A DNA stretch of 64,000 nucleotides from an uncultured Candidatus Saccharibacteria bacterium (GCA_964577565.1 CAZNZL010000001.1:142566-206565); one strand, 5' to 3'; positions 10,878 to 50,830 are shown, counted from the stretch's first letter. Program-made: numbers and translations. The notes: a model not told the origin generated them from the sequence alone.

Positions 10878-12746
10878 ATGATATCAATGCATTCCCGCAA
10901 ATTATTGACGAGACTTCGAAGGCCACGAAAAGATCCTTTAGCTTTTTTACGAACTCAAAAAATATATGGCCGAAACTCACATCTAGTTGCTACCTTGCTT
11001 GTGTTGCTTACCTGCTTGGCGGCTACGGGCGCGGTATGGTATGGGGCTCGAAAAAATGCCGATAAAGTGTTCCAGCAAGAAGCAGAAAAGCGCATTGAAG
11101 ACTCCAACCAGACTATCGGTAATCGTCTCGTACTAGTTACTACCGTACTTTCTAGTGGTAGCGGTTTGTTTGGTGCCTCAGAACAAGTCACCAGAGTAGA
11201 ATGGAATTCTTTTATTGGTCAGGTGTATCAGCAAAGATTATTTCCGGGCGTTAGAGCGTTTGGTTATGTCTCGTATGTAAAATCAGGGGAATTGCAAGAG
11301 CACACAACTGCCATGCGACAAATCAGTAAGCCGGATTACGCTGTAGTGCCGGTTACTAACGAAACCGATATTCATGCTCCGATTAGTTTTCTGGCTCCTC
11401 CAAATACAAAACGTGAAAGAGTCATAGGTTATAATATGTACTCCAACGAAACAAGGCGAAACGCTATAAATATCGCCCGTGATAGCGGCAAAGTCTCTCT
11501 CTCGGGAAAAGTTGACTTAGTAGCCCATAGAAACGGAACGCCGTCCGAACGTGGTCTTATCTTGTTTCAACCTATATATCATAAAAACAAGCCCCTAGGG
11601 ACCGTTGAGCAAAGACGACAAAACATAATGGGCTTCACGTATGCTGTCATTGTCATTGATGAAATGTTCTCTGGTGTATTCGGTTCGAATAATAATAACG
11701 ACATCGGCATTGAAATTTATGATAACAACCATAAAAGCGAGGCCGACCTCATGTATCGGTCAGAAAATTACGACGCCATTGCATCCAGCAGTAGAAGTTT
11801 TGTAAAAGAAAGAAAAGAAACGATAACTGATCATGAATGGTTGATAACGTATGCAGTAGCCCATGATACCCTTTCCCCAGCAGAAAGAGACGCGCCCTTT
11901 TCTACCCTGCTAAGGGGTGTGGTTTTAAGTCTCGCGTTAGCATTTTTTGTGTACTATCTTTTAACGTACCGGACGAGAAAAATACTTGAAGCTAAGCACT
12001 ATGAGGTTCAAAGTGCGAAAGATGACTTGTTATCATTAGCATCCCATCAGTTACGTACCCCCGCCACCGTTGTTAAGCAATACGTCGGTATGTTACTCCA
12101 GGGTTACGGTGGAGAGCTGAACGATCAACAAAAAAATATGCTAGAGAGCGCCTATACGAGCAATGAAAGGCAACTCCAAATTATTAACCAAATTCTCTAT
12201 GTCGCCCGTCTGGATGCCGGCCAAATAAGGCTTCATAAAGAGCGAACTAATTTGAACAAGCTGCTCAAAGAGGTAGCCGATGAACACCGCCCATCGTTTA
12301 GGGAAAATAAGCAAAAGTTTAATCTTCGACTACCCACCAAAACAATTTATATTCGTGGCGATCGACAGTATCTTCATATGGTACTTGATAATCTACTTAG
12401 CAATGCTGGCAAATACACCCCACCAGGCGGTAGAGTTTCGACTATTTTAACATCGGGTGAAGGACGAGCGACCATAACGGTTAAAGATAGCGGAGTGGGT
12501 GTTACAAAGGGTGAATTAGCAGGTATTTTTGATAAATTCACTCGAGGGACAAGTGAAATGACAGCTCAGGTAAGCGGCAGTGGCATAGGGTTGTATCTGG
12601 TCAAAAAAATTACTGAGCTGCACCGTGGCAGTATAGAGGCACGGCCAAATAAGCCAAGCGGTACCATTTTTGAGCTTTGTTTACCGCTCGGGATATCAAG
12701 GCGAATAAAAGCGAGGAAGGATACACGTGATAGAAATTCCGCTTAA
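10878..12746 (+). CDS. sensor histidine kinase with extracytoplasmic CHASE-like domain
   Basis: Two TM segments flank a roughly 280-aa domain with CHASE-like blocks (VRAFGYVSYV..., IGYNMYSNETRRNAINIARDSG, LILFQPIY). H-box SHQLRTP and an HATPase region (DSGVGV, GSGIGL). Confidence 0.85.
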   Translation: MISMHSRKLLTRLRRPRKDPLAFLRTQKIYGRNSHLVATLLVLLTCLAATGAVWYGARKNADKVFQQEAEKRIEDSNQTIGNRLVLVTTVLSSGSGLFGASEQVTRVEWNSFIGQVYQQRLFPGVRAFGYVSYVKSGELQEHTTAMRQISKPDYAVVPVTNETDIHAPISFLAPPNTKRERVIGYNMYSNETRRNAINIARDSGKVSLSGKVDLVAHRNGTPSERGLILFQPIYHKNKPLGTVEQRRQNIMGFTYAVIVIDEMFSGVFGSNNNNDIGIEIYDNNHKSEADLMYRSENYDAIASSSRSFVKERKETITDHEWLITYAVAHDTLSPAERDAPFSTLLRGVVLSLALAFFVYYLLTYRTRKILEAKHYEVQSAKDDLLSLASHQLRTPATVVKQYVGMLLQGYGGELNDQQKNMLESAYTSNERQLQIINQILYVARLDAGQIRLHKERTNLNKLLKEVADEHRPSFRENKQKFNLRLPTKTIYIRGDRQYLHMVLDNLLSNAGKYTPPGGRVSTILTSGEGRATITVKDSGVGVTKGELAGIFDKFTRGTSEMTAQVSGSGIGLYLVKKITELHRGSIEARPNKPSGTIFELCLPLGISRRIKARKDTRDRNSA

Positions 12747-16178: not shown

Positions 16179-17450
16179 ATGGACGATGAATTGTTGCGTA
16201 GAACCAACCAAGAGATAAACCAAGAATTTATGCCGCCTCATAAACCACAGAAAAAAACCAAAAGCAGGGCAATTGTTTTGTGTATTATTGCGCTGGTACT
16301 AGTGACTGCTGTTGGATTTTTCATGTTTAGGGATAGTAGTTCTCAATCAACTACCAATGAAGCAACTGGTCAATCTGCTCAAGCTCAGCAAAAAAAGAAG
16401 CGCGTTCGCTTGATTGCTACGGGCGACATGATTCCTCACGATGCCATTAATAAAGCTGCCCAACAAGCTGATGAGAGTTATGAATATTCCCCTATGTTTG
16501 GTGACATGAAACGACTGTTTGATGCTAGTGACGTACGGTTTTGTAATCAAGCGGTGCTGGCTGGTGGGAGGGAGTTTGGTGTAAGTGGCTACCCTAAATT
16601 TAATTCACCTATCGAGTTTACGCGTGATATGGCAGAACTAGGCTGCAATGTTATTAACACGGGCAGTAACCATACCAATGATTTTAATCAAGATGTTATT
16701 TCAGCCTCGGTGCAGGCATGGGGTGGCCAGCCGGGTGTCTTGGCTGTTGCCGGTGCTAATGCTGTAGCTGCCGATAAACAAAAAGTGCACTATTTTGAAA
16801 AAAATGGCATTACGTTTGCATTTGTTTCGTATACGACGTACACTAACGAGCCTTCGCCAAATGGCTATAGCGTGACAATGTATGATGACGCCCTTGCGCA
16901 AACGCAGCTCGCAGAAGCCCGCAACAAAGCTGATATTGTAATTGCCAGTTTACGCTGGGGAACGGAATATTCTCCTGATATTAATAGTCAGCAAAAAATA
17001 ATTGGCCAGAAGATTGCCAATTATGGCGCTGATATTATTGTTGGCCACGGGCCACACGTGCTTCAGCCGTTTGAGATCCTAACGCTTGATGATGGTCGCA
17101 AAGCATATATTTGGTACAGCCTTGGTAATTTTTTAAATGCCCAGCTAGAGCTTGAGACTCTGTTTAATGTGATTGCTGTCATGGACATCAACCCCGATAC
17201 TAAAAAGATAGATTCTGTTGGGTATGTTCCAATATATATGCATTATGAATGGAGCGCGGCCGATAAAGCAGCAGGTCGTTTGTTGGAACGAAAAAACTTT
17301 AGCATGTTTACGTTTGAAGATGGGCAAGATGCGCTTGATAGATCACAAAACGATACCACCTTTGATGCACAGAAACACCGCATCAGTGAGACACTCAGCA
17401 AATTTACCCAGCTAAAACTATTAACTAAAGACGATTATCTGGGTTCATAA
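16179..17450 (+). CDS. CapA-family (PGA_cap) metallophosphatase-like envelope protein
   Basis: IATGDMIPHD, GSNHTND, RWGTEYS, GHGPHVLQP; N-terminal TM segment. Confidence 0.82.
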   Translation: MDDELLRRTNQEINQEFMPPHKPQKKTKSRAIVLCIIALVLVTAVGFFMFRDSSSQSTTNEATGQSAQAQQKKKRVRLIATGDMIPHDAINKAAQQADESYEYSPMFGDMKRLFDASDVRFCNQAVLAGGREFGVSGYPKFNSPIEFTRDMAELGCNVINTGSNHTNDFNQDVISASVQAWGGQPGVLAVAGANAVAADKQKVHYFEKNGITFAFVSYTTYTNEPSPNGYSVTMYDDALAQTQLAEARNKADIVIASLRWGTEYSPDINSQQKIIGQKIANYGADIIVGHGPHVLQPFEILTLDDGRKAYIWYSLGNFLNAQLELETLFNVIAVMDINPDTKKIDSVGYVPIYMHYEWSAADKAAGRLLERKNFSMFTFEDGQDALDRSQNDTTFDAQKHRISETLSKFTQLKLLTKDDYLGS

Positions 17451-30007: not shown

Positions 30008-30517
30008 TTATAGGGCTGCTTCTAGTGCTGCCCATTCGGCGTTGGTGTAATCTTCTGGCAAATCAACGCTTACTTGATCACCAGGTTTAGCTTTAAAATA
30101 GGTTACGCTGGCCAACAACACCCGAAACTTCTTTTTATCTATCTCGACATAATATTGACCGTTTTCCAACGTTAGCATACCGACTTTTTGCACGCGCGGG
30201 ACGGGACCAATTTGCTTGTATAAAAACGTACCGTCATCGGCAATCGTTAATTTCAGAATGTCACCCTGTACTAACTTTGACTTGGATGCATAGTTTGCTG
30301 GTACCGGGTATGTTTTGCCGTCGCTGCCTACCATTGCCTGGCCGTCAAATACGCCTTCTATAATTTTACCGATTGGCTCATCCTGAAGCTTTGCTGCTTC
30401 CGGCTTGTCATCACCCACTACGCTAACAAGGAGTTCCTTTGCAGCGGCAAGGCTCGTCTCCGCTTCTTCAATTAAAATTCTTAAGCGCTTAATTTGTTTT
30501 TCGGGTAAATCTGGCAT
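30008..30517 (-). CDS. hypothetical 169-aa protein
   Basis: Clean ORF between the rplL terminator and dnaX; no motif recognised. Confidence 0.65.
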   Translation of the reverse strand: MPDLPEKQIKRLRILIEEAETSLAAAKELLVSVVGDDKPEAAKLQDEPIGKIIEGVFDGQAMVGSDGKTYPVPANYASKSKLVQGDILKLTIADDGTFLYKQIGPVPRVQKVGMLTLENGQYYVEIDKKKFRVLLASVTYFKAKPGDQVSVDLPEDYTNAEWAALEAAL

Positions 30518-31075: not shown

Positions 31076-31600
31076 TTAGGCAGTTGCCTTTGCTTCTATA
31101 CCGTCCAGTATTGCATGTAGGTTACCGGAAAGTGCGTTGGTAACATCATTGAGTGGTGAAGCCAATATAGCTATCACTTGGGCAATAAGCTCGTTCTTGC
31201 CCGGTAGGTTTGCTAATGCCTTGACGTCATCAGCACCGAAAAACTGACCTTCTGCCGTGATAGCGCCAACAAATTGTAGGTTTGGGTTGTTTTTGGCGAA
31301 TGCTGCAAGTACCTGAGCAGGTGCTACCTCATCGGCGTTATTAAACGCGTATAGAAGTTGTCCTCGTAAGGCGCTTACGTCGGCAGTTTTGAGCTGCTCG
31401 TTGCTTTCAATTGCCTTAATGACGAGTCGGTTTTTTATTACCTTAACAACAGTGCCGTTTGCTTTCGCGTTACGACGTAGCTCTTGCAAGGCTTTAACGC
31501 CCGTACCTTGATAAGCGGCAGCAACTGTTAACTTTGATTCGCCAAGTAAAGTGGTTACTTCACTTACCACTGACTGCTTTTGTTCTTTTGTTAAAGCCAT
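31076..31600 (-). CDS. rplJ: ribosomal protein L10
   Basis: [12 protein letters not shown]...; SD AAAGGA before ATG 31600 (the track's upstream start is unlikely). Confidence 0.9.
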
Positions 31601-31808
31601 AGGGTATCCTTTACTTGTTATAGTTGTATCGACCAAATTTTAAATGTTCTTTTACCAAAAAAGCCTTTGGCATTCCAAAGACTTTTATACGATTTTTGCT
31701 TAAACGGCTTCTCGTACCTCGGTAGCATTCTTAATTCGCTCGTGAGCGAACGCTACTGTCTTTGGTAAATAACATCTTAATTTTAACAAATTATTATTGT
31801 TTCGTCAA
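31601..31808 (-). promoter_or_regulatory. rplJ promoter plus L10-leader-like 5' UTR with an internal hairpin and U-run
   Basis: Minus strand: TTGACG (31808-31803), 17 nt, TAAAAT (31785-31780). Leader hairpins TTCGCTcacgAGCGAA and CTTTGGaatgCCAAAG followed by T6 (31657-31681). Not checked with a covariance model. Confidence 0.45.
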
Positions 31809-32410
31809 TCGGTGTATTCTTCACACTCAACCGCAACAGTAGCACTGAGCACAGGAGCTGCTCGATGTTGATTTAAGAAATCTAATGTAGATCGCATTTG
31901 TCGTTGATGAGACGTTGGTAACTCAGATTGGATAACGGGGCCGGTGCGGTTACATTCAGTCGACAGGCCTTCGGGTAACTCAAATTGTCGAATAATGGCC
32001 TGGGATTGTTCGTCATAAGAAACGACATGTAAGCCTGGAGTCCATGTGTCCAGTGGATTAAAAGCACGAACGAAGATTACATCATCATTACTGGCTGGCC
32101 GTAAATGCCGACGAAAAATTGGCTGAACGTCCATGGTTGTCCGTTGCAAATCCTCAGACACAACAATCACACGAAACCATGGATGATCATTGCCGGGTTT
32201 TGTGCTACGAGGCCTCCCTTCATTCAAAAGTGCCCACGAGTCGATGGTTCGTTTTTTTGCCTGCCAACCATGTTCTTCAGCCAGTCGGTGTAATTGTTGA
32301 AACGATGCTTCATCGTATTGAGCTACATACTTGCGAGCAGCCTCTGCCAGGCTGTGTGTTCCTTCATCTGTCATATTGTTAGATCGTTCATAACTATGTT
32401 GCGCGGCCAT
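31805..32410 (-). CDS. hypothetical 201-aa protein (orphan)
   Basis: ATG 32410 preceded by GAAGGAA. The stop TGA is embedded in the -35 of the rplJ promoter. Confidence 0.6.
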   Translation of the reverse strand: MAAQHSYERSNNMTDEGTHSLAEAARKYVAQYDEASFQQLHRLAEEHGWQAKKRTIDSWALLNEGRPRSTKPGNDHPWFRVIVVSEDLQRTTMDVQPIFRRHLRPASNDDVIFVRAFNPLDTWTPGLHVVSYDEQSQAIIRQFELPEGLSTECNRTGPVIQSELPTSHQRQMRSTLDFLNQHRAAPVLSATVAVECEEYTD

Positions 32411-32428
32411 TATGTGTTCCTTCAATCT

Positions 32429-32451
32429 AAAAACCCCGCTTGAGCGGGGTT
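32429..32451 (-). terminator. hairpin plus U-run located 18 nt upstream of the ORF start at 32410 (leader terminator/attenuator)
   Basis: Minus strand: aaCCCCGCtcaaGCGGGGttttt. Confidence 0.65.
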
Positions 32452-32548
32452 GTTGCTTTACTTATTTGCTATAACAAACACTACACCCGCTTGCGCGTGT
32501 AATCAATAATCTTAGAGATAATTATTGCTCGTGTCATTACAAGCAACA

Positions 32549-32577
32549 TTTATACGCTTAACTATTGCTATTGTCAA
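32549..32577 (-). promoter_or_regulatory. sigma70-like promoter for the 31805-32410 gene
   Basis: Minus strand: TTGACA (32577-32572), 17 nt, TATAAA (32554-32549). The -35 overlaps the stop codon of the upstream ORF. Confidence 0.55.
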
Positions 32578-32873
32578 GCAGGTAGATTGAGTCGCTGAGC
32601 ATTGGTTGTCATAGTGATAGTGTGCGGTCTGTCACCCTCCTGACTTTCGGACCCGTCAAAAGGCACGATAACGATAGTATCCGAAATAGGTCCTCGAATG
32701 TTGTTATCTGCGGGATATGTTCTTTGTTCGTACATATCAGGGCCAGCTACTTCAACGGTTGTTTTGTGTGTAGCGCCTGCAACTTGCGTGCGCACACCGT
32801 TGGTTATATGTGTAACGTCTACATTGCTTGAACGCTCCAAATAGTCTTTTACTTTTTCTGAAATTGCCATCAT
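32574..32873 (-). CDS. hypothetical 99-aa protein (orphan)
   Basis: SD AAGGAAAC before the ATGATG start; no motif recognised. Confidence 0.6.
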   Translation of the reverse strand: MMAISEKVKDYLERSSNVDVTHITNGVRTQVAGATHKTTVEVAGPDMYEQRTYPADNNIRGPISDTIVIVPFDGSESQEGDRPHTITMTTNAQRLNLPA

Positions 32874-32900
32874 GTTTCCTTATATCAAATTAATTGCGTT

Positions 32901-32982
32901 AAAAAAGCCCAATGTTGATCGGGCTGTGCTGGTCGGTAGAATGTATTTACCGTTCAGGCTTCGCGTATGCTAAGCACAGCCC
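32901..32982 (-). promoter_or_regulatory. leader with mutually exclusive helices (10-bp long-range helix versus a short hairpin plus U6) upstream of the 32574-32873 gene
   Basis: Plus 32921-32930 gggctgtgct is the perfect reverse complement of plus 32973-32982 agcacagccc. The gggct at 32921-32925 is also one arm of the hairpin agccc/gggct (32906-32925), which is followed on the minus strand by T6. Confidence 0.5.
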
Positions 32983-33037
32983 TTTAAGGCCGAGGAGGAG
33001 GTCAAGACCAAGCTGTACTTTATAGATCATTAATGGC

Positions 33038-33065
33038 ATTATAGCAAAATTAGGCTACTTGACAA
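33038..33065 (-). promoter_or_regulatory. sigma70-like promoter for the 32574-32873 gene
   Basis: Minus strand: TTGTCA (33065-33060), 16 nt, TATAAT (33043-33038). Confidence 0.55.
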
Positions 33066-33087
33066 GTTTTTTGAAAGAGCGTACATT
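33059..33087 (+). promoter_or_regulatory. divergent plus-strand promoter sharing the -35 region with the minus-strand promoter
   Basis: TTGACA (33059-33064), 17 nt, TACATT (33082-33087). Confidence 0.45.
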
Positions 33088-33212
33088 AAATACTCGTGAA
33101 TACATTTCAACACATTATTGCTAAGATCTGCATGGGCCGCAACTACGGTTTTGTGCTCGTGGTTGCATAATTTGTTGGAGTAGGTTCGCAAGCAAACAAT
33201 TTGGTAGACAAC

Positions 33213-33246
33213 AAACCGGACTCCAACAACAAGGTCCGGTTTTTTA
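33213..33246 (+). terminator. intrinsic terminator about 150 nt downstream of the plus-strand promoter (end of an sRNA, or leader terminator of the 33373 gene)
   Basis: AAACCGGACtccaacaacaagGTCCGGTTTttt. Confidence 0.7.
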
Positions 33247-33372
33247 CTGCGGCGAATCGATGATTGTCCTCGGTTGAGAATAATCATGGGAGCACCGCTT
33301 CCATATAAGTCTGTCCTGCACTGCGTAGGATAGCCATCCGAAAGGATGACCTTAACAAGGGGGAAGAATAGT

Positions 33373-33567
33373 ATGGTTGACGTGTATCTCGATGAGGTAG
33401 CCGAAGACCGGGTCAGGCGCATGAGTGAAGCAGCGCGCGTTGACCGGGCCATGCGCCGTACTCGTCGCTTGCTCCAGTCACCGATGGCGGCTGATGCAAC
33501 TCTGCGTCAACGCTGGGAGAACAAGCTTCGCAATCAAGAGCGTCAGTTGTCATCACTTTGTCGCTAG
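33373..33567 (+). CDS. hypothetical 64-aa Arg-rich helical protein (orphan)
   Basis: ATG 33373 preceded by AAGGGGGAAG. Sequence MVDVYLDEVAEDRVRRMSEAARVDRAMRRTRRLL... Confidence 0.45.
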   Translation: MVDVYLDEVAEDRVRRMSEAARVDRAMRRTRRLLQSPMAADATLRQRWENKLRNQERQLSSLCR

Positions 33568-33744
33568 ACGACAAAGCTATTGATATGGTGGGGCTGCAGG
33601 GTTTGACCTTGCAGTAAGCAGTTTGTGATAACAACTGTTTTCTGATGATTCATCAGGACCCACCACACCCATACCGCTTACCACTGCTATAACTATAATC
33701 AGACATATTCTTCCCCCTAAATAAACAAAATTAGGAACGTATTT

Positions 33745-33969
33745 ATGAATCAGAATGGGGAATTTGAGGCCACCGGCGATGCAATAATAGAATCTCTAGA
33801 ACGCAACTGGCAAGAGGTGCGTCGGAATGGAATTGTTAGTAGTGTTATAGTTGAGCCCTCAGCTTTAATACTGAGTGTTCGCGATGAAACCTGGGACGGT
33901 ATTAAATCAGGTCGTCTTCAACGAACGGATACACCTCCCGAACACCACTATGTTTATGAAGATGTATAG
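33745..33969 (+). CDS. hypothetical 74-aa protein (orphan)
   Basis: Weak SD (AGGAA). Convergent with the tmk-thyX stop, 2 nt away. Confidence 0.45.
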   Translation: MNQNGEFEATGDAIIESLERNWQEVRRNGIVSSVIVEPSALILSVRDETWDGIKSGRLQRTDTPPEHHYVYEDV

Positions 33970-33971
33970 CT

Positions 33972-36290
33972 TTAAGACTTGTCTAGTTGTTTTAATTTAA
34001 ATTGTGTATATCGTTCAGCTGCCAACCGTGTTAATTCAGGGTCCTCACCCTGATTTACAAACTTCATGGCTTCAGCAATTAATGGATGTACTTCTGCAAG
34101 CTTTTCGTGCATTTGTTGTACGAGTTTTCGATAGCCAGGGTGGCCTTGTGGTGAGGTTCGTAGCTCATGAAGGTGAAATGCTTCGCGGGCATTATACGTT
34201 ACCTTCCAGCGCATTTTATGACCAAGTAGTGTTGCATATTGGGCTTCAAGTTCGTACCCAGCTGCCTGAAGTTCGCTGTAGAGCTGAAGGCTACTATCGA
34301 AACACTTTTCAAACAAATCAACCAACCCGGCCTCTTCAATTAATTTTGGAATATCATAGCCGTAACGCGGGGTTAAATACTGCCATTCAAGGTCATCAAC
34401 GATGCGGTGGCGCTGTAGGTCTCTAAAGATACCGTAGTCACATATTAAATCCCAGCTATAATGAGCTTTTTCTAAGGCTCTGCCTGGCTTGTGCCGGCGA
34501 TTTAACCGCTCACCCATATAACTTCTAAAGATTTCTACGCGCTTATCGTATGGCAAATTAAGGACGCTACGATTTAAGTCTTCCAGTGGTAGGTTGGTGT
34601 GTTCATATAACATATCTGCAACCAAATCGAGCTCGTTGCGTGGCCAATAGCTCGTTAGGGTGACGGCTTCGTTTGCTTCGCTATAATGGCTTGGTACTAC
34701 TTCTTGGGCGTGTTGCTTCATGGCGGCGCGGGTGTTTGACCAATAGGCAATAGTAGCACCGCCTCGATCAGCTTTATCGGCTCGTTCTAAGAAAGTTGAG
34801 ACTACTTTTCGACTTTCATCAAGCAGGGCCTGACCTACGTCACGTGCTTCTGGCAAATCATCGCTAAGTAAGTGCATAATTAAGCTTTCTAAGGCCTGGC
34901 CAGAAGCATAAATGCCAACCGTTGACGTCGTAGCAACGGGCAGAACCGGACGTACGGCATCACATGCCTGAGCTCGGGTAGCTCCCTTCCACGCTAGATC
35001 TTGCTCTTTTTTTGGAACGTTAGAGTTTTTTCGTACGTGATCAGTAAGTTTGTGAACCATTTCAGAATATAAATCAAAAATTTTGTCCATGCTGTCGATG
35101 TATTTTTGTTTTACATCATCATTAAAGTGTTTTGGCGTTAAGTAGCGGTAATTGCCGTTTTTGTCTTTTTGGTCAAAATATATGTAGCGAGTTGACTGTT
35201 CTAAATATGAAGCCAATCGGCCCCACTCAAGCTTTTTGGTTAGCAAATTCGAGGCGTTTTCTACCACAACATGTTGCCCTGCAAGCTGCTGTACGGAGTC
35301 ATCTCCGTAGGCAGTAATAACGCGGCGCAGCAAATCCTTGTCTTTATCTGCTTTATTGGCAAACTCATCTAAGATTGTTATACGCATATCATCGCCGCGA
35401 CGGCTTAAACGCGCCATAGCCGCAGCAATTGTGACCGTGCTTAGCTCGTCGGTAAACGCATAAACATTGTCAGTTGTATTTGTAACGGCTTTTTGAAGAT
35501 ATGCCTTGCCATTATCGGTGATTTCATAGCCGTTTTCAGTCTTACGCAGCAATTCAGTTTCGTCTTGTTGCTTATTGCTGGTTTTTAGCATAGGTTTGAC
35601 TTTCTCCCATATTAAGTTATGAATTTCATCAATACTGAGTAGTTTGCCGTCACGTATACTGTCAATACGCTGAAAGTCTTTTGGAAACAACTCGCATAAA
35701 TCTTTATATACTTCAAGTGAGCGCTCAATGTGTGCTTCATCAGCTTCATGAATGTCTTTTTTGACATGCGTGCTTGAGTTCTCTTTTGCAGCTAGCCGTT
35801 CTTTGATGACTTCAAGTGGTGTATATAAAACAAAGCTTAAGTTTGGACGGGGTATGCCGAGCATTTCAAACTCTAAATTATCGAGCCAAATAAAATACCC
35901 CCGCCGTTCTTCTGGGTTGTTAAATTTTGTACCTTGGTGCGCCATGTTTGAGCCCACATACCGGTCGCACAACACAATTTTACCGGCCCTAAGAGCGTCT
36001 TTGATTTCTTTGGCGGCCTGGTAACGGTCTAAGGCATAAAACATCGAGCTCTTGTACGGCCCTACCTCGTTAGCCTCGCCGTACTTACCTGCGAGGTATT
36101 CGCGAACAAAGTAGCTTGATTCTTCATCGTAACGAGGAAAATGAATATTCAGGATATCATAGCCCTCGTCGGTTAGCTTTTTTTGCAGCGCTTCATACTG
36201 CGTAGATTTACCTGACCCGTCAGTACCCTCAATGACGATGAACAAACCAGTTTCTTCCCCACCCTTGTTAAGTGTGGAAGAATTATTCAT
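33972..36290 (-). CDS. fusion protein: N-terminal thymidylate kinase plus a roughly 540-aa tandem ThyX-like (flavin-dependent thymidylate synthase) module
   Basis: Tmk part: IVIEGTDGSGKSTQ P-loop and CDRYVGSNMAHQ. C-terminal part: LASYLEQSTRYIYF (S..S.RY block) in the first repeat, FRDLQRHRIVD (RHR) in the second, and FHLHELRTSPQGHPGYR. ATG 36290 overlaps the dcd stop by 8 nt. Confidence 0.75.
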   Translation of the reverse strand: MNNSSTLNKGGEETGLFIVIEGTDGSGKSTQYEALQKKLTDEGYDILNIHFPRYDEESSYFVREYLAGKYGEANEVGPYKSSMFYALDRYQAAKEIKDALRAGKIVLCDRYVGSNMAHQGTKFNNPEERRGYFIWLDNLEFEMLGIPRPNLSFVLYTPLEVIKERLAAKENSSTHVKKDIHEADEAHIERSLEVYKDLCELFPKDFQRIDSIRDGKLLSIDEIHNLIWEKVKPMLKTSNKQQDETELLRKTENGYEITDNGKAYLQKAVTNTTDNVYAFTDELSTVTIAAAMARLSRRGDDMRITILDEFANKADKDKDLLRRVITAYGDDSVQQLAGQHVVVENASNLLTKKLEWGRLASYLEQSTRYIYFDQKDKNGNYRYLTPKHFNDDVKQKYIDSMDKIFDLYSEMVHKLTDHVRKNSNVPKKEQDLAWKGATRAQACDAVRPVLPVATTSTVGIYASGQALESLIMHLLSDDLPEARDVGQALLDESRKVVSTFLERADKADRGGATIAYWSNTRAAMKQHAQEVVPSHYSEANEAVTLTSYWPRNELDLVADMLYEHTNLPLEDLNRSVLNLPYDKRVEIFRSYMGERLNRRHKPGRALEKAHYSWDLICDYGIFRDLQRHRIVDDLEWQYLTPRYGYDIPKLIEEAGLVDLFEKCFDSSLQLYSELQAAGYELEAQYATLLGHKMRWKVTYNAREAFHLHELRTSPQGHPGYRKLVQQMHEKLAEVHPLIAEAMKFVNQGEDPELTRLAAERYTQFKLKQLDKS

Positions 36291-37111: not shown

Positions 37112-38026
37112 TTAAACGTCGCTATTATTTACGTGAATACTAGGGCCCATAGTCGTGGTTACAAAAACAGACTGGATGTAGCTGCCTTTTAGGCTGGCCG
37201 GCTTGGCGGTCTTGATGGCGTTTATGATGGCATTGGCGTTTTGCTCTAGATCTTCAGGTTTAAAGCTTGCTTTACCAATGCTTAAATGGATTATGCCGGT
37301 GCTATCTACGCGGTATTCAACCTTGCCTGCCTTGGCTTCTTTAACGGCTGTTGCTACGTCTTTTGTAACCGTGCCGCTCTTTGGGTTTGGCATAAGGCCT
37401 TTAGGGCCAAGTAACCGAGCGTATTTGCCGAGTTTAGCCATCATTTGTGGCGTTGATATTAAAACGTCAAAGTCAAGTTGTTCTTTGTCGAGTTTTTGTA
37501 GAAAGTCATCTGAACCGGTAATATCGGCACCTGCTGCCTGAGCCTTTTTAGCATCGTCAACATCTGCGAATACAGCTACACGTACCGTTCTGCCGCTACC
37601 CGCTGGCAAGGTAACGGTTCCGCGTATATTTTGGTCTGCTTGGCGTGGATCGACACCGAGCTTAATATGAAGCTCTACGCTTGCATCAAACTTGGCAGGA
37701 TTAGTCTTGCCTGCTAGTTCAAGGGCTTCAGCCAGGCTGTATTCTTTGGTTTTATCAATCAACTTAGCTGCTTCTCGAAATTTCTTACCTTTACGTTCTA
37801 AGATAGAACGAGCCGGTTTAACAGGTTGTTTTGGCTTAGCTTTATCAGTCTCTTCTGTAGCGTTTTCTTTGCGTGCTTCTTTGGCTTGCTTTTCTTCAGC
37901 TTCTTTAAGAGCTTTTGTACTGCGCTTTCCGGCTTTTGCGGTAGTAGCAGCTTTTGGCGTTTCTTTTACCTCAGCAACCTGTGCTGCTGTTTCTTCTTTA
38001 GTTTGCTCTTTCTTGGCTTCTGCCAT
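37112..38026 (-). CDS. rplA: ribosomal protein L1 with a roughly 75-aa Lys/Glu/Ala-rich N-terminal extension
   Basis: Core [13 protein letters not shown]...[24 protein letters not shown]...; SD AAAGGAG before ATG 38026. Confidence 0.92.
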
Positions 38027-38153
38027 AACTTCTCCTTTCGTGGTGCAAACATCTGTCAACGTGGCAGACTCCCACAGTTTAATGTAATTATTATAACATC
38101 GAATTTAAAACTATTCTAGTGTTTCAGTTGTTCGCAACGTTTTATGTGCTTTT

Positions 38154-48709: not shown

Positions 48710-49732
48710 TCATGAACGTAACCCTATGGCTTTTTGGACACGCAGCAATGTTTCATTAGCTACTTTGTTCATAGCTTGTTCTGATGCTTCAAGTTTTTGC
48801 CGGAGGGCTTGCTCATCCACATCTGTAAGTCTGGCCTGAAAGTTTCGTAAAAAATTTGCAACTGCATCAGCAACCGCAGTCTTTAATGGTCCGTATTGAG
48901 TTTGCCCAATAAACGCATTCTGATCACCGCCTAAGAACTTATAGATATCCAGTAGGTTGCTGATACCTGGCTGTTTTTGATAATCATAAACTATCTTTCC
49001 TAATGAATCTGTAGTGGAGCCCATAACTTTTCGATGTGCATTTTCTGGCGTATCGCCCAAGAATATAACCCCTTTACTGCTACCTTCGGATTTACTCATT
49101 TTTTTCTCTGGGTTAACTAAATCTCTGACGCGTAAACGCTGCTGTTGGCTCGCAAAAGCAATCTGCTCTTTTTCTGGCGCAGGAGGTGTGAATAGCTCAC
49201 CAAATTTGTTATTCATTCTAATCGCAATATCTCGCGCAAGTTCAACGTGTTGAGTTTGGTCTGCACCAACGGGTACATATTTTGCGCCATACAATAAAAT
49301 ATCAGCCGCCATGAGGACGGGGTAATCAAATAGCCCAACGCTGACACTACTCTTGCCTTGCCCTTTTTCTTTGAATTGCGTCATGCGATTTAATTCACCG
49401 ATATACGTAAAACTATTTAAAATAATAGTTAGCTCGCTGTGTGCAGGGATGAAGCTTTGACGGTATAAATAGGTGTCTAACTGATTAAGGTCAAGGCCTG
49501 CCGCAATATAGAGCTTGAGATTATGCATGGTTTGTTCATACAATCGTGAATGGTCAATTGGTGTCGTAAAACTGTGTAAATCTGGTACAAATAGATTAAT
49601 TTGATATTCGCCCGTATATTTCTTTTGCAGTTCCACCATAGGGAGCAACGCCCCTAGATAGTTACCGAGGTGCAAGTCATTATTTGCTCTTAAGCCAGTT
49701 AGAATTACTGGTTTACTCATATTTAACTTCAT
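48710..49732 (-). CDS. trpS: tryptophanyl-tRNA synthetase
   Basis: LHLGNYLGAL (HIGH-like), GADQTQH, KMSKS. The start could be 49720. Confidence 0.93.
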   Translation of the reverse strand: MKLNMSKPVILTGLRANNDLHLGNYLGALLPMVELQKKYTGEYQINLFVPDLHSFTTPIDHSRLYEQTMHNLKLYIAAGLDLNQLDTYLYRQSFIPAHSELTIILNSFTYIGELNRMTQFKEKGQGKSSVSVGLFDYPVLMAADILLYGAKYVPVGADQTQHVELARDIAIRMNNKFGELFTPPAPEKEQIAFASQQQRLRVRDLVNPEKKMSKSEGSSKGVIFLGDTPENAHRKVMGSTTDSLGKIVYDYQKQPGISNLLDIYKFLGGDQNAFIGQTQYGPLKTAVADAVANFLRNFQARLTDVDEQALRQKLEASEQAMNKVANETLLRVQKAIGLRS

Positions 49733-49744
49733 TATAGCGCATAT

Positions 49745-50656
49745 TTATGCAAAGTATGGTGTAGAATCTGTGGCACGGATTGGTGCTGTAATTTGGCGGA
49801 TTCGTGCACGTTTGATTATTGTTACATATTGTTTTGCAATGTCGGGTGAGACGGGTGGGTCAACTGGGCTTTCAAGATTGCTTGCCTCACACAGTACCGC
49901 GGCGGGTGCGTAGCCACTGGTAGCTAACTCGGCGATGTGTCGCAGGGCGCGTTCTTGTGCAATAGCTGACTTTTGGAATTCGCCAGCAGGGTCATGGGCC
50001 ATTTCTGACCCATGAGCGGCATCAACGACCATTAAACCATTAGTAGCGGTGTAGGCTTCAATATAGAGTTTTTCCCACGCTTCTGGTGTTTTTGCAGCTT
50101 CTCCGCCACGAAATACTAAGAAAACTGGTGCTCCTGCGTCTCCGCGTGCAGCGTTTAACCGGTCAACCGTTATTAATGCAGGTTCAACTTCGCCTGACAA
50201 AGGATTCTTCTCACCTAATGGTATAGCAGGATCCTCTAGGGCTATTTCTTCTTTTTCATCCTCGTCTTCAAGGCGACTACCCAACCACCCAAGTGCTATT
50301 CTTGAGCCGTACCGTACCACGTGTTCTAGTCGCCCAAGCTCCATCGCAACATTGCCGCGCAGTTTTGCTTGCTTATCGATGCGAGCAAACGCACCAACTG
50401 GATCCGTTGTCTCCATGCCAAACCAACTTGTCGGCAAGGTACGCGGTTTCCAGACGCACATACGCTCTAACGTTGCATCGATAACTTCTTCTTCAGCCGT
50501 AAGTGCACACGGTCCTTGTATATCAATAAAGCCCCGGCCCGACATAGTTTTTGTAACAAGATTACGATGGTAATCTCGGCGCTCTTCTAACTCAGGCGTG
50601 AATTCAAACATGTCATGCAATTCTTCTGCCGTTGGTGTTTCTGGTGCAAATTTCAT
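49745..50656 (-). CDS. divergent DAHP-synthase (AroG-like class I) family protein
   Basis: By-eye alignment to E. coli AroG blocks: IDIQGPCA (GPCS), VWKPRTL (KPRTT), WLGSR (GART), LGEKN (GFKNG), FRGGE (LRGG), VVDAAHGS (IDFSHANS), LCEAS (VESH). SD GGAAAGGA. Confidence 0.5.
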   Translation of the reverse strand: MKFAPETPTAEELHDMFEFTPELEERRDYHRNLVTKTMSGRGFIDIQGPCALTAEEEVIDATLERMCVWKPRTLPTSWFGMETTDPVGAFARIDKQAKLRGNVAMELGRLEHVVRYGSRIALGWLGSRLEDEDEKEEIALEDPAIPLGEKNPLSGEVEPALITVDRLNAARGDAGAPVFLVFRGGEAAKTPEAWEKLYIEAYTATNGLMVVDAAHGSEMAHDPAGEFQKSAIAQERALRHIAELATSGYAPAAVLCEASNLESPVDPPVSPDIAKQYVTIIKRARIRQITAPIRATDSTPYFA

Positions 50657-50675: not shown

Positions 50676-50830
50676 AAAAAAACCGCCGTGTGGCGGTTTG
50701 GTTTAACAATTTATTACAAATCTAAGCCGAACGCCACACGTGTGGGTTTGTAAACCAAACGTAAAAATAGTTTACCGTTCGACGTATCATAACGACTATG
50801 ACAATACTATATAAAGGTTGCTCACGTCAA
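50676..50830 (-). promoter_or_regulatory. candidate promoter plus structured leader ending in a strong hairpin/U7 20 nt upstream of the DAHP-synthase-like gene
   Basis: Minus strand: TTGACG (50830-50825). A 10-bp long-range helix, gtttggttta (50760-50751) with taaaccaaac (50705-50696), encloses a CCACACGTGTGG palindrome. Then AACCGCCacacGGCGGTTttttt (50698-50676). Confidence 0.45.

Follow-up and report, generated by a model that had tools for sequence, protein, structure and literature searches.

The tmk-thyX to rplJ interval

We analysed a stretch of 64,000 nucleotides (nt) from an uncultured Candidatus Saccharibacteria bacterium (GCA_964577565.1, CAZNZL010000001.1:142566-206565), called the window throughout, with positions counted from its first letter. 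The subject is the interval between rplJ and the tmk-thyX fusion gene, in which four small open reading frames (ORFs), ORF1 and ORF2 on the minus strand and ORF3 and ORF4 on the plus strand, are accompanied by three leaders, A, B and C, located upstream of ORF2, ORF3 and ORF1, respectively (Table 1). A first-pass annotation of this DNA had described the four ORFs, their promoters and a leader for each gene, and had regarded the whole as an islet of orphan genes that splits the normally adjacent rplA and rplJ. ORF calling recovers all four ORFs, and the same products are called in public assemblies. The leaders themselves, each of which contains a short upstream ORF (uORF), are probably conserved leader-peptide attenuators and as such would be the main feature of the region, which that annotation overlooked.

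Table 1. Features of the interval and of its surroundings, in window positions
Feature	Position	Strand	Remarks
Leader A promoter	33065-33038	-	TTGTCA-16-TATAAT, 11/12 (promoter scan)
Leader A	33065-32906	-	Leu-type; precedes ORF2
Leader A uORF	33030-32947	-	MIYKVQLGLDLLLGLKGLCLAYAKPER, then stop; ATG 7 nt past the -10 element
Leader A CUC CUC CUC run	33000-32992	-	
Leader A terminator	32925-32906	-	AGCCCGAU-caac-AUUGGGCU + U6
Leader B promoter	33059-33087	+	TTGACA-17-TACATT, 10/12 (promoter scan)
Leader B	33059-33245	+	Val/Leu/Ile-type; precedes ORF3
Leader B uORF	33096-33170	+	MNTFQHIIAKICMGRNYGFVLVVA, then stop; GTG start
Leader B terminator	33216-33245	+	CCGGACUCC...GGUCCGG-U6
Structured spacer	33247-33372	+	between leader B terminator and ORF3
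Leader C promoter	TTGACA 32577-32572, TATAAA 32554-32549	-	spacing 17
Leader C	32577-32432	-	Ile-type; precedes ORF1
Leader C uORF	32537-32481	-	MTRAIIISKIIDYTRKRV, then stop; ATG 11 nt past the -10 element
Leader C terminator	32451-32432	-	ACCCCGC-tcaa-GCGGGGU5
ORF1	31805-32410	-	201 aa from ATG (206 aa from upstream TTG)
ORF2	32574-32870/32873	-	98/99 aa
ORF3	33373-33567	+	64 aa; alternative 73-aa ATG at 33346 falls within a hairpin
ORF4	33745-33969	+	74 aa
rplJ-rplL unit promoter	31808-31780	-	TTGACG-17-TAAAAT, 10/12, TG before the -10 element; holds the ORF1 TGA
Ribosomal protein L10 leader (RF00557)	31783-31648	-	56.4 bits, gathering score 44; full-length model 1-138 (cmscan)
Aromatic leader	50681-50802	-	leader C type, aromatic codons
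Aromatic leader uORF	50790-50722	-	MIRRTVNYFYVWFTNPHVWRSA, then stop
303-aa protein gene	49745-50656		follows the aromatic leader
trpS	48710-49732		follows the 303-aa protein gene
p169	30008-30517	-	169-aa protein between rplL and dnaX
rplA	37112-38059	-	315 aa

The interval was compared among 80 loci containing the tmk-thyX fusion (denoted by L numbers), which were obtained in a scan of species-representative genomes and are nearly all labelled Saccharibacteria or Saccharimonadales (63-87% identity). Searches with the window proteins (tblastn) recover the order rplA-dcd-tmk-thyX-gap-rplJ-rplL-p169-dnaX in essentially every sufficiently long locus, and rplA and rplJ are separated by dcd and the tmk-thyX fusion in all Saccharimonadales relatives that have both flanks (69 species). 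As the same gene order is found in the relatives, the separation of rplA and rplJ is ancestral, i.e. it is normal for the order Saccharimonadales and not an anomaly, and the earlier idea that the islet has parted two neighbours does not apply here. From the end of tmk-thyX to the start of rplJ the distance ranges from 278 to 6013 nt (median 2194 nt, n = 69), so that the 2372 nt, or 2.4 kb, of the window are close to the median; the interval from the end of rplA to the start of dcd measures 66 to 3141 nt (median 896 nt, n = 69). The comparison of the rplA-rplJ interval with relatives, which the first-pass annotation had itself proposed, hence speaks for an ancestral and variable slot: the islet fills a lineage-wide variable slot with turnover of its content.

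Nothing points to a mobile insertion. Similarity searches of the region against phages and plasmids gave no match, a search for flanking repeats found no meaningful ones around the interval, and no tRNA is located in or beside it, the nearest being more than 10 kb away (ARAGORN); as none of the islet ORFs matches Pfam, PHROGs or NCBIfam, no integrase is recognisable among them. These results, together with the ancestral position of the slot, the vertical conservation of promoters and leaders in many species and the same architecture in the closest relative, L002, with homologues of ORF1, ORF3 and ORF4, argue against horizontal acquisition, i.e. against the insertion between rplA and rplJ of an islet whose four orphans are independent and have ordinary promoters and leaders. 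Such an acquisition could explain why the four proteins are singletons at 90% identity without family annotation, why the content of the interval differs even in L002, where ORF2 is replaced, and why the GC content climbs to 0.53 near ORF3, but it is largely refuted by the synteny comparison and we consider it hardly tenable.

Conservation at the DNA level (blastn of the islet against the loci) is limited to positions 33303-32887 and 32558-32424, the first of these stretches reaching 33668 in L002. The leaders are the sole strongly conserved sequence of the interval, and the fixed content of the slot is RNA, probably regulatory, and not the orphan genes. In L002 leader B is followed by ORF3 and ORF4 on one side, and on the other side leader A is followed by a gene in place of ORF2, leader C, ORF1 and the L10 leader. 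A divergent housekeeping non-coding RNA (RNase P RNA, tmRNA, SRP RNA or 6S RNA), suspected from the 400 nt of conserved DNA, was dropped as a candidate: ARAGORN and Rfam found none, and the alignments resolve into a divergent promoter, translated leaders and terminators.

Further intergenic slots of this ribosomal/replication block also vary greatly in length among the loci (L002-L081), i.e. rplA-dcd, rplL-p169 and p169-dnaX, which suggests that the block contains several insertion-tolerant hotspots.

Three leaders with short reading frames and alternative hairpins

All leaders have the same layout: a promoter is followed, 7-11 nt after its -10 element, by the start of an ORF of 17-27 codons, and an intrinsic terminator precedes the gene. 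As the start codon is so near the -10 element, the leader ORFs are probably leaderless, i.e. translated without a 5' untranslated region. In most loci the terminator lies ~35 nt before the gene start (~125 nt for leader B of the window), and these ~35 nt between terminator and ATG hold a Shine-Dalgarno (SD) sequence and no promoter. Searches with nhmmer over the 80 loci identified leader A, immediately behind tmk-thyX, in 50 (iterated search), the pair of leaders A and B in 28, and leader C in ~20.

Leaders A and B start from divergent promoters at 33038-33087, for which the earlier annotation had proposed a shared -35 region. Both promoters are present, the pair is conserved across loci, and the two -35 hexamers overlap with an offset of 1 nt in a palindrome-like sequence, CTTGACAAG; since the box is shared, only a single polymerase at a time could use it. 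TTGTCAA is invariant in an alignment of eight sequences, and all 28 loci with both leaders contain TTGACA (the 7-mer TTGACAA in 26/28, by eye). Promoter-like sites as such are not enriched by count (16 vs 12.5 +/- 3.2 in shuffles). Two further details had been described correctly, namely the TGA stop of ORF2 (32576-32574) lies within the TTGACA of leader C, and that of ORF1 (31807-31805) within the TTGACG (31808-31803) upstream of the L10 leader. The proposal that the region consists of separate transcription units with leaders of their own is borne out for ORF1, ORF2 and ORF3; upstream of ORF4 no attenuator is seen.

Leader A is represented by an alignment of 51 instances. Its uORF is open in the same frame in 48/51, with the stop codon at a fixed structural position, a terminator hairpin with a T-run is found in 48/51 (mean hairpin energy -11 kcal/mol), and the distance from the -10 element to the start codon is 7-8 nt in 21 of the 30 copies with a recognisable promoter. 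In the window the SD sequence and the ATG of ORF2 follow ~30 nt beyond the terminator, and the element GGGCUGUGCU (32982-32973) can pair either with the upstream AAGUACAGCUU (33020-33010) or with AGCACAGCCC (32930-32921), the latter pairing overlapping the terminator. The helix GGGCUGUGCU/AGCACAGCCC is paired in 94% of the alignment cells; a second helix, GUUGAAGCC(UGA)/(UCA)GGCUUCAAC, which in most loci links the last uORF codons with the 5' arm of the terminator, is paired in 84%. Compensatory changes affect 16/22 pairs of these helices; values as high as those observed are reached in 0/500 shuffles, with 29-44% in slid controls. In one subtype, represented by the window, L002 and L003, the 5' arm of the terminator is AGCACAGCCC itself. 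The minimum free energy (MFE) fold of leader A of the window has AAGUACAGCUU paired with GGGCUGUGCUU, the CUC run in a loop and the terminator formed, and in this model corresponds to the classical 1:2/3:4 terminated state.

Two observations concern the distribution of leader A. L061 contains two copies (12331-12490 and 16243-16396); the second copy is not in the usual slot but past rplL, and the gene behind it encodes a 216-aa protein with a weak match of the Aca2/YdiL type. The core of the leader, GGGCTGTGCTTCANNNNGNTTGAAGCC, has at least 120 matches in a metagenome scan, so that this element family is common in metagenomes.

Leader B retains its uORF in 28/28 loci, starting with GTG or ATG 32-39 nt from the start of the -35 element (36-39 nt in 27). 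The peptide consensus is M....II(A/T)K..CR.YGFVLV(V/M)A(K), followed by the stop codon, with FVLVV as the run. In the window the stop codon is 3 nt ahead of GUUGGAGU (33174-33181), which pairs with ACUCCAAC (33220-33227) inside the terminator. This putative antiterminator is paired in 81% of cells and shows 19 double-change cells vs 7.3 in shuffles (0/500 as high); the terminator is paired in 77%. RNAalifold consensus folds of leaders B and C yield fragments only, owing to the alternative structures. Between the leader B terminator and ORF3 the window has a structured spacer (MFE -47.9 kcal/mol, z = -3.7), which contains a mini-ORF, MGAPLPYKSVLHCVG followed by a stop codon, with conserved first codons (M-G/E-A-x-L-P). 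Conservation of the spacer extends to L002, L003 and L004, and in part also to L010, L012 and L034; its hairpin CAUCC-GAAA-GGAUG covaries in L003, and the spacer may constitute a second regulatory layer.

Leader C is always the second leader, located after the gene behind leader A. Its uORF is present in 20/22 matches, with the start codon 34-40 nt from the -35 element, and the peptides are rich in Ile, with the pattern IIIxKII (related copies include MAHNIIISKIIAISQTRV, MSLTSIIIKIIETRHQRD and MTCAIIIEIIEETPTRA, each ending at the stop codon). GCGGGUG at the end of the uORF is complementary to the 5' arm of the terminator, and the SD sequence and ATG of ORF1 are found ~20 nt beyond the latter. 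The antiterminator is paired in 79% of cells; 3/500 shuffles reach this pairing and 11/500 reach its number of double-change cells. In L023 and L062 both of its sides have changed together.

Leaders A, B and C are not in Rfam. An Rfam search of positions 31500-34100 gave, besides the L10 leader, just Trp_leader on the leader C terminator (22.8 bits, threshold 41), leader C of L053 matches Phe_leader with 28.1 bits (threshold 55), and leaders A and B gave no match; the weak matches thus are solely to leader-peptide families. A strict generic attenuator scan of the window missed leaders B and C. A relaxed scan of the whole window for a promoter, a short ORF, a terminator and a gene in succession recovered leaders A and C, the L10 leader and a further leader with aromatic codons described below, and nothing else.

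Codon runs, probable attenuation and alternative explanations

The constant RNA scaffold of leader A carries different codon runs: CTC CTC CTC in 26 loci, ATT ATT ATT in six and mixed Leu/Val/Ile runs in others. CTC is the rarest Leu codon of the window, with a share of 9%, but within the run its share of the Leu codons rises to 61%. L071 and L044 have the same scaffold but read it in a different frame, which gives the run LVLVIIV; the peptide sequence beyond the run is therefore not the conserved entity.

Where the downstream genes are recognisable, they fit the codon run, i.e. LeuA-like enzymes, IlvA, RidA and tryptophanyl-tRNA synthetase (TrpRS). All LeuA-like genes (13/13) are found behind a leader with an LLL run, and 11 of these leaders are classed as Leu-type. 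By set, the Leu-type class comprises 5/7 in the genomes and 5/5 in metagenomes, the two exceptions having the runs ILLL (L077) and ISLLL (L020). These genes are HMGL-like in Pfam, and their best NCBIfam model is 2-isopropylmalate synthase, below its cut-off. Leader C precedes IlvA (threonine dehydratase) in L021 and RidA in L007.

As to the LeuA-like enzymes themselves, those of L003, L007, L018, L020, L032, L074 and L077 have 387-496 aa and contain the HMGL catalytic domain; Leu makes up 3.6-4.6% in six of the seven and 6.9% in L032. In the L003 protein (391 aa), the sole one checked, the match to the bacterial LeuA model covers just positions 1 to ~336 of 516, and the C-terminal regulatory domain usual for LeuA thus seems to be absent.

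The composition of the regulated proteins follows the run as well. Behind Leu-type leader A, Leu amounts to 4.4%, vs 9.2% behind leader B and 9.4% behind leader C (p ~1e-16), and Ile to 6.4% vs 5.7% behind leader B (not significant). Behind pure Ile-type leader A, Ile drops to 0.7% vs 6.4% behind the Leu-type (p = 4e-9), and behind leader C it is 3.8% vs 5.7% behind leader B (p = 3e-4). As the idea of depletion arose from the genome set, it was tested on metagenome instances fetched afterwards. In this independent set of 78 non-redundant instances, among the matches listed, Ile is 2.3% behind Ile-type vs 7.0% behind Leu-type leaders (p = 6e-13), and Leu is 5.3% vs 7.1% (p = 0.016). Thus, the regulated proteins avoid the sensed amino acid, leader B excepted. 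The window obeys this rule with three Leu in the 98 residues of ORF2 and 3.5% Ile in ORF1.

These data also bear on what the tiny ORFs are for. If they encoded functional hydrophobic peptides (membrane or type I toxin-like), with the hairpins ending short transcripts and the orphans having promoters of their own, it would be understandable that the leader A peptide is hydrophobic and conserved past the run (...GLCF(S/N)MVEA up to the stop codon), as is the leader B peptide (...CR.YGFVLV.A up to the stop codon); and leader peptides acting in trans are known, e.g. peTrpL, as outlined in PMC7298713. However, L071 and L044 retain the RNA sequence in spite of a different frame, the conserved residues of leader A coincide with paired RNA showing compensatory changes, the swap of the run from Leu to Ile tracks the composition of the downstream protein, and in most loci just ~35 nt separate terminator and ATG, which contain an SD sequence but no promoter. 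We regard functional peptides as a very improbable explanation.

Instead, we are fairly confident that leaders A, B and C, judged by their sequences, are amino acid-responsive leader-peptide attenuators, which most likely induce their genes upon a shortage of leucine, isoleucine or related amino acids. When charged cognate tRNA is plentiful the ribosome would reach the uORF stop codon, where it would occlude the upstream half of the antiterminator or let this half re-pair elsewhere; the intrinsic terminator would then form, and transcription would end ~35 nt before the gene start in most loci. A ribosome stalled in the codon run, in turn, would allow the antiterminator to form first, so that RNA polymerase would enter the gene. 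In the window leader A would gate ORF2, leader C ORF1, and leader B ORF3 and possibly ORF4. The uORF stop abuts or falls within the upstream half of the antiterminator in the majority type of leader A and in leaders B and C, a placement by which a terminating ribosome would block the antiterminator and a stalled one would leave it free. For leader A of the window the energy of the antiterminator minus that of the terminator is +4.1 kcal/mol for the bare RNA, -0.4 kcal/mol with a ribosome on the first CUC and +2.6 kcal/mol with a ribosome at the stop codon. The modelling as a whole is weakly supportive, and the case rests on the comparative evidence.

Several points weigh against this interpretation or limit it. 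In equilibrium folding with the ribosome as a mask the terminator stays in the MFE fold in 44/50 cases, and a kinetic proxy based on truncated transcripts gives a modest result (31 vs 11 loci, p = 0.004) and is uninformative, even misleading, for the subtype of the window. As the two supported helices of leader A cross, its switching may involve a pseudoknot or alternatives. The proteins behind leader B show no depletion of Val, Leu or Ile, which makes the signal of this leader uncertain, and the covariation of the leader C antiterminator is thin, with very few events. From sequence we infer transcription start sites, termination, stalling and read-through alike. Finally, as the phylum is held to lack amino acid biosynthesis, we know of no precedent for such attenuators before non-biosynthetic orphans to lean on.

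The failure of equilibrium folding to reproduce a ribosome-driven switch would also agree with leaders that bind a ligand or a protein, or that sequester the SD sequence like the LEU element of actinobacteria, the translation of the uORF being incidental. With its crossing helices leader A is reminiscent of the pseudoknot described ahead of leuA in actinobacteria (PMC1262725), and CUCCUC is, by inspection, complementary to the GGAG-type SD sequences of the downstream genes. Such switches would, however, not account for the near-fixed distance from the -10 element to the start codon, the frame open in 48/51 and the conserved stop, nor for codon identities that swap between Leu and Ile on the same scaffold with the regulated proteins following, nor for U-run terminators in 48/51. 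We thus deem them improbable and retain attenuation by a leader peptide.

Attenuators of this general kind are well established. The enterobacterial leu, ilvGMEDA, ilvBN, thr, his, phe and trp attenuators likewise have an ORF with a codon run, mutually exclusive antiterminator and terminator hairpins and a U-run terminator near the gene, and the same enzyme classes are found downstream in other Saccharimonadales loci (LeuA, IlvA, TrpRS). In contrast to them, the leaders described here match in neither sequence nor structure, with no Rfam leader family reaching its gathering score; their ORFs appear leaderless instead of being led by an SD sequence; the same scaffold occurs with Leu, Ile or mixed runs; and most targets are small orphans and not biosynthetic genes, in a phylum regarded as auxotrophic.

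Actinobacteria, although a different phylum, offer closer parallels in some respects. In C. diphtheriae the start site of ilvB was mapped at the start codon of its leader, which is thus leaderless, while the start sites of the leu and trp leaders could not be assigned (PMC5784534). The leader peptides are similar in style, i.e. MNIIRLVVITTRRLP (Corynebacterium ilvB) and MNRANLLLLRRGGSQA compared with MTRNIILVVITTPRGARF (L058) and ...LNLLLGL... here, a resemblance of peptides only. In Streptomyces attenuators precede trpS and leuS, and thus tRNA synthetase genes as here, and the LEU element upstream of leuA combines a uORF with a pseudoknot (PMC1262725), much like the uORF and the pseudoknot-like pair of helices of leader A. 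No terminator was described for the LEU element, though, and its proposed target is the SD sequence, whereas 48/51 copies of leader A here have a terminator. Mycobacterial polycysteine ORFs, as sketched in bioRxiv 10.1101/834739, are leaderless short ORFs that form the first cistron, sense one amino acid by a codon run and control downstream genes. Compared by description only, and as far as that source describes them, they follow the same leaderless codon-run logic with a different amino acid and a different RNA.

Two leader C peptides, MTRNIILVVITTPRGARF (L058, 13390-13500) and MTQNLILVAITTPRGARF (L060, 4186-4297), are closely similar to the Corynebacterium ilvB leader MNIIRLVVITTRRLP, a likeness for which either common ancestry or transfer between Saccharibacteria and Actinobacteria could be responsible. 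Actinobacteria serve as hosts for some cultured Saccharibacteria.

The kind of regulation is thus known (leu/ilv/trp/phe-type attenuators), but these RNAs are not in Rfam and were not found described for the phylum, a literature search for such attenuators in Saccharibacteria or Patescibacteria having found no report. Unusual are the phylum, a single scaffold that serves several codon runs, a divergent pair with a common -35 box and targets that mostly are hypervariable orphans. In Patescibacteria (Candidate Phyla Radiation) little is known of gene regulation, few regulators are recognisable and most lineage-specific small proteins are unassigned. Three easily recognised and widespread RNA element families absent from Rfam may serve as a bioinformatic handle on the amino acid starvation regulon of these organisms. 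They provide a physiological signal, the shortage of a specific amino acid, for dozens of orphans that could otherwise not be annotated, and the predicted scarcity of the sensed amino acid in regulated proteins has been borne out by an independent set.

Saccharibacteria are generally held to lack amino acid biosynthesis, and it is puzzling that LeuA-like enzymes, IlvA, RidA and orphans are under biosynthetic-style attenuation in an organism thought not to make Leu or Ile. Our best guess is that the orphans are fast-evolving proteins needed during branched-chain amino acid starvation of an auxotrophic epibiont, and that ORF2-type proteins dock onto a common partner via a conserved C-terminal tail. 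Going further, we speculate that the slot is a starvation-gated cassette locus of epibiotic auxotrophic Saccharibacteria, in which leaderless attenuators read host-derived Leu/Ile/Val and switch on rapidly diversifying small proteins, many of them disordered apart from a conserved C-terminal tail for docking or export (...PYxGTEG..D.P...ANLPA), that act on the host or on the own uptake machinery to restore supply, the scaffold maybe being exchanged with actinobacterial hosts. This scenario as a whole is unlikely to be correct in all its parts and is offered tentatively.

The orphan proteins and further features of the window

Public assemblies call versions of the four proteins with 201, 98, 64 and 74 aa, each a singleton at 90% identity. 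The earlier statement that they have no recognisable motifs is correct in so far as none matches a family in Pfam, PHROGs, NCBIfam or PADLOC, the latter giving just a chance-level match of ORF4 to the ThsA Macro-domain model (14 bits, E = 0.004). The profile searches that had been recommended thus yield no annotated function. It is not correct in so far as ORF1 belongs to a small family, ORF2 shares its tail with other proteins and ORF3 and ORF4 show purifying selection, and for these reasons all four look like real genes.

ORF1 is a genuine protein of a rare family. A search of 1.84 billion representatives found nine relatives, which are 159-202 aa long (best E = 8e-19), and the residues W49, R80, Q96, P97, F113 and R115 are invariant; the L002 homologue also comes after a leader C. 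The AlphaFold model is confident and of the alpha+beta type, with a mean predicted local distance difference test (pLDDT) score of 78, exceeding 90 over most of residues 20-150. A search of the PDB with this model (Foldseek), of the kind that the first-pass annotation had suggested, gave no significant fold match (best E = 0.03, template modelling score 0.25); a profile search of the PDB returned nothing meaningful.

ORF2 ends in ...IVIVPFDGSESQEGDRPHTITMTTNAQRLNLPA. This C-terminal tail follows the motif (V/I)PYxGTEGxxDxP...(R/W/M)ANLPA or ANMIA at the extreme C-terminus and is common to ~15 small proteins behind leader A in other loci; a profile search with it finds 13 database proteins, all hypothetical. 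Overall, ~25 other small proteins have this tail. A word-seeded homologue search with the single sequence returned the query alone, and a profile search of the PDB was empty. The AlphaFold model has a pLDDT of 40.6, too poor for a structure search, and ORF2 probably is a small, disordered protein. Its tail would fit a short linear docking motif.

ORF3 is basic and apparently helical, ends in ...SLCR and has an SD sequence, GGGGGAAG, 8 nt upstream of the ATG; homologues are found in L002 (68%), L012 and L034. ORF4 has a homologue in L002 only (41% over 51 aa, E = 4e-7), and a word-seeded database search for further relatives returned just the query. Ratios of nonsynonymous to synonymous substitution of ~0.10 for ORF3 and ~0.24 for ORF4, each against L002, indicate that both are under purifying selection relative to the closest relative.

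ORF4 and tmk-thyX are convergent, with stop codons 2 nt apart (33967-33974) and no terminator in between; their transcripts should therefore overlap.

At the other end of the interval rplJ starts at 31600, directly after the L10 leader, which is the last of four leaders in series and is itself directly preceded by the TTGACG promoter. The L10 leader is presented in PMC4538822 as an autoregulatory leader that binds the L10/L12 proteins. It shares with leaders A, B and C the interval and a terminator just before the gene, but going by that account it is of the protein-binding type, a known family, and not of the leader-peptide type.

A fourth probable leader-peptide attenuator, of the leader C type and with aromatic codons, is found elsewhere in the window. 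It precedes a 303-aa protein without a family match, which is followed by trpS, and the TrpRS encoded behind this leader contains no Trp at all. That the 303-aa protein might be a DAHP (3-deoxy-D-arabino-heptulosonate 7-phosphate) synthase was considered and is unsupported by Pfam, NCBIfam and PDB sequence searches.

Among the flanking genes, the p169 product has no Pfam match and is present in 61 related loci with 71-96% identity. The product of rplA has a Lys/Glu/Ala-rich N-terminal extension of ~80-90 residues before the L1 domain.

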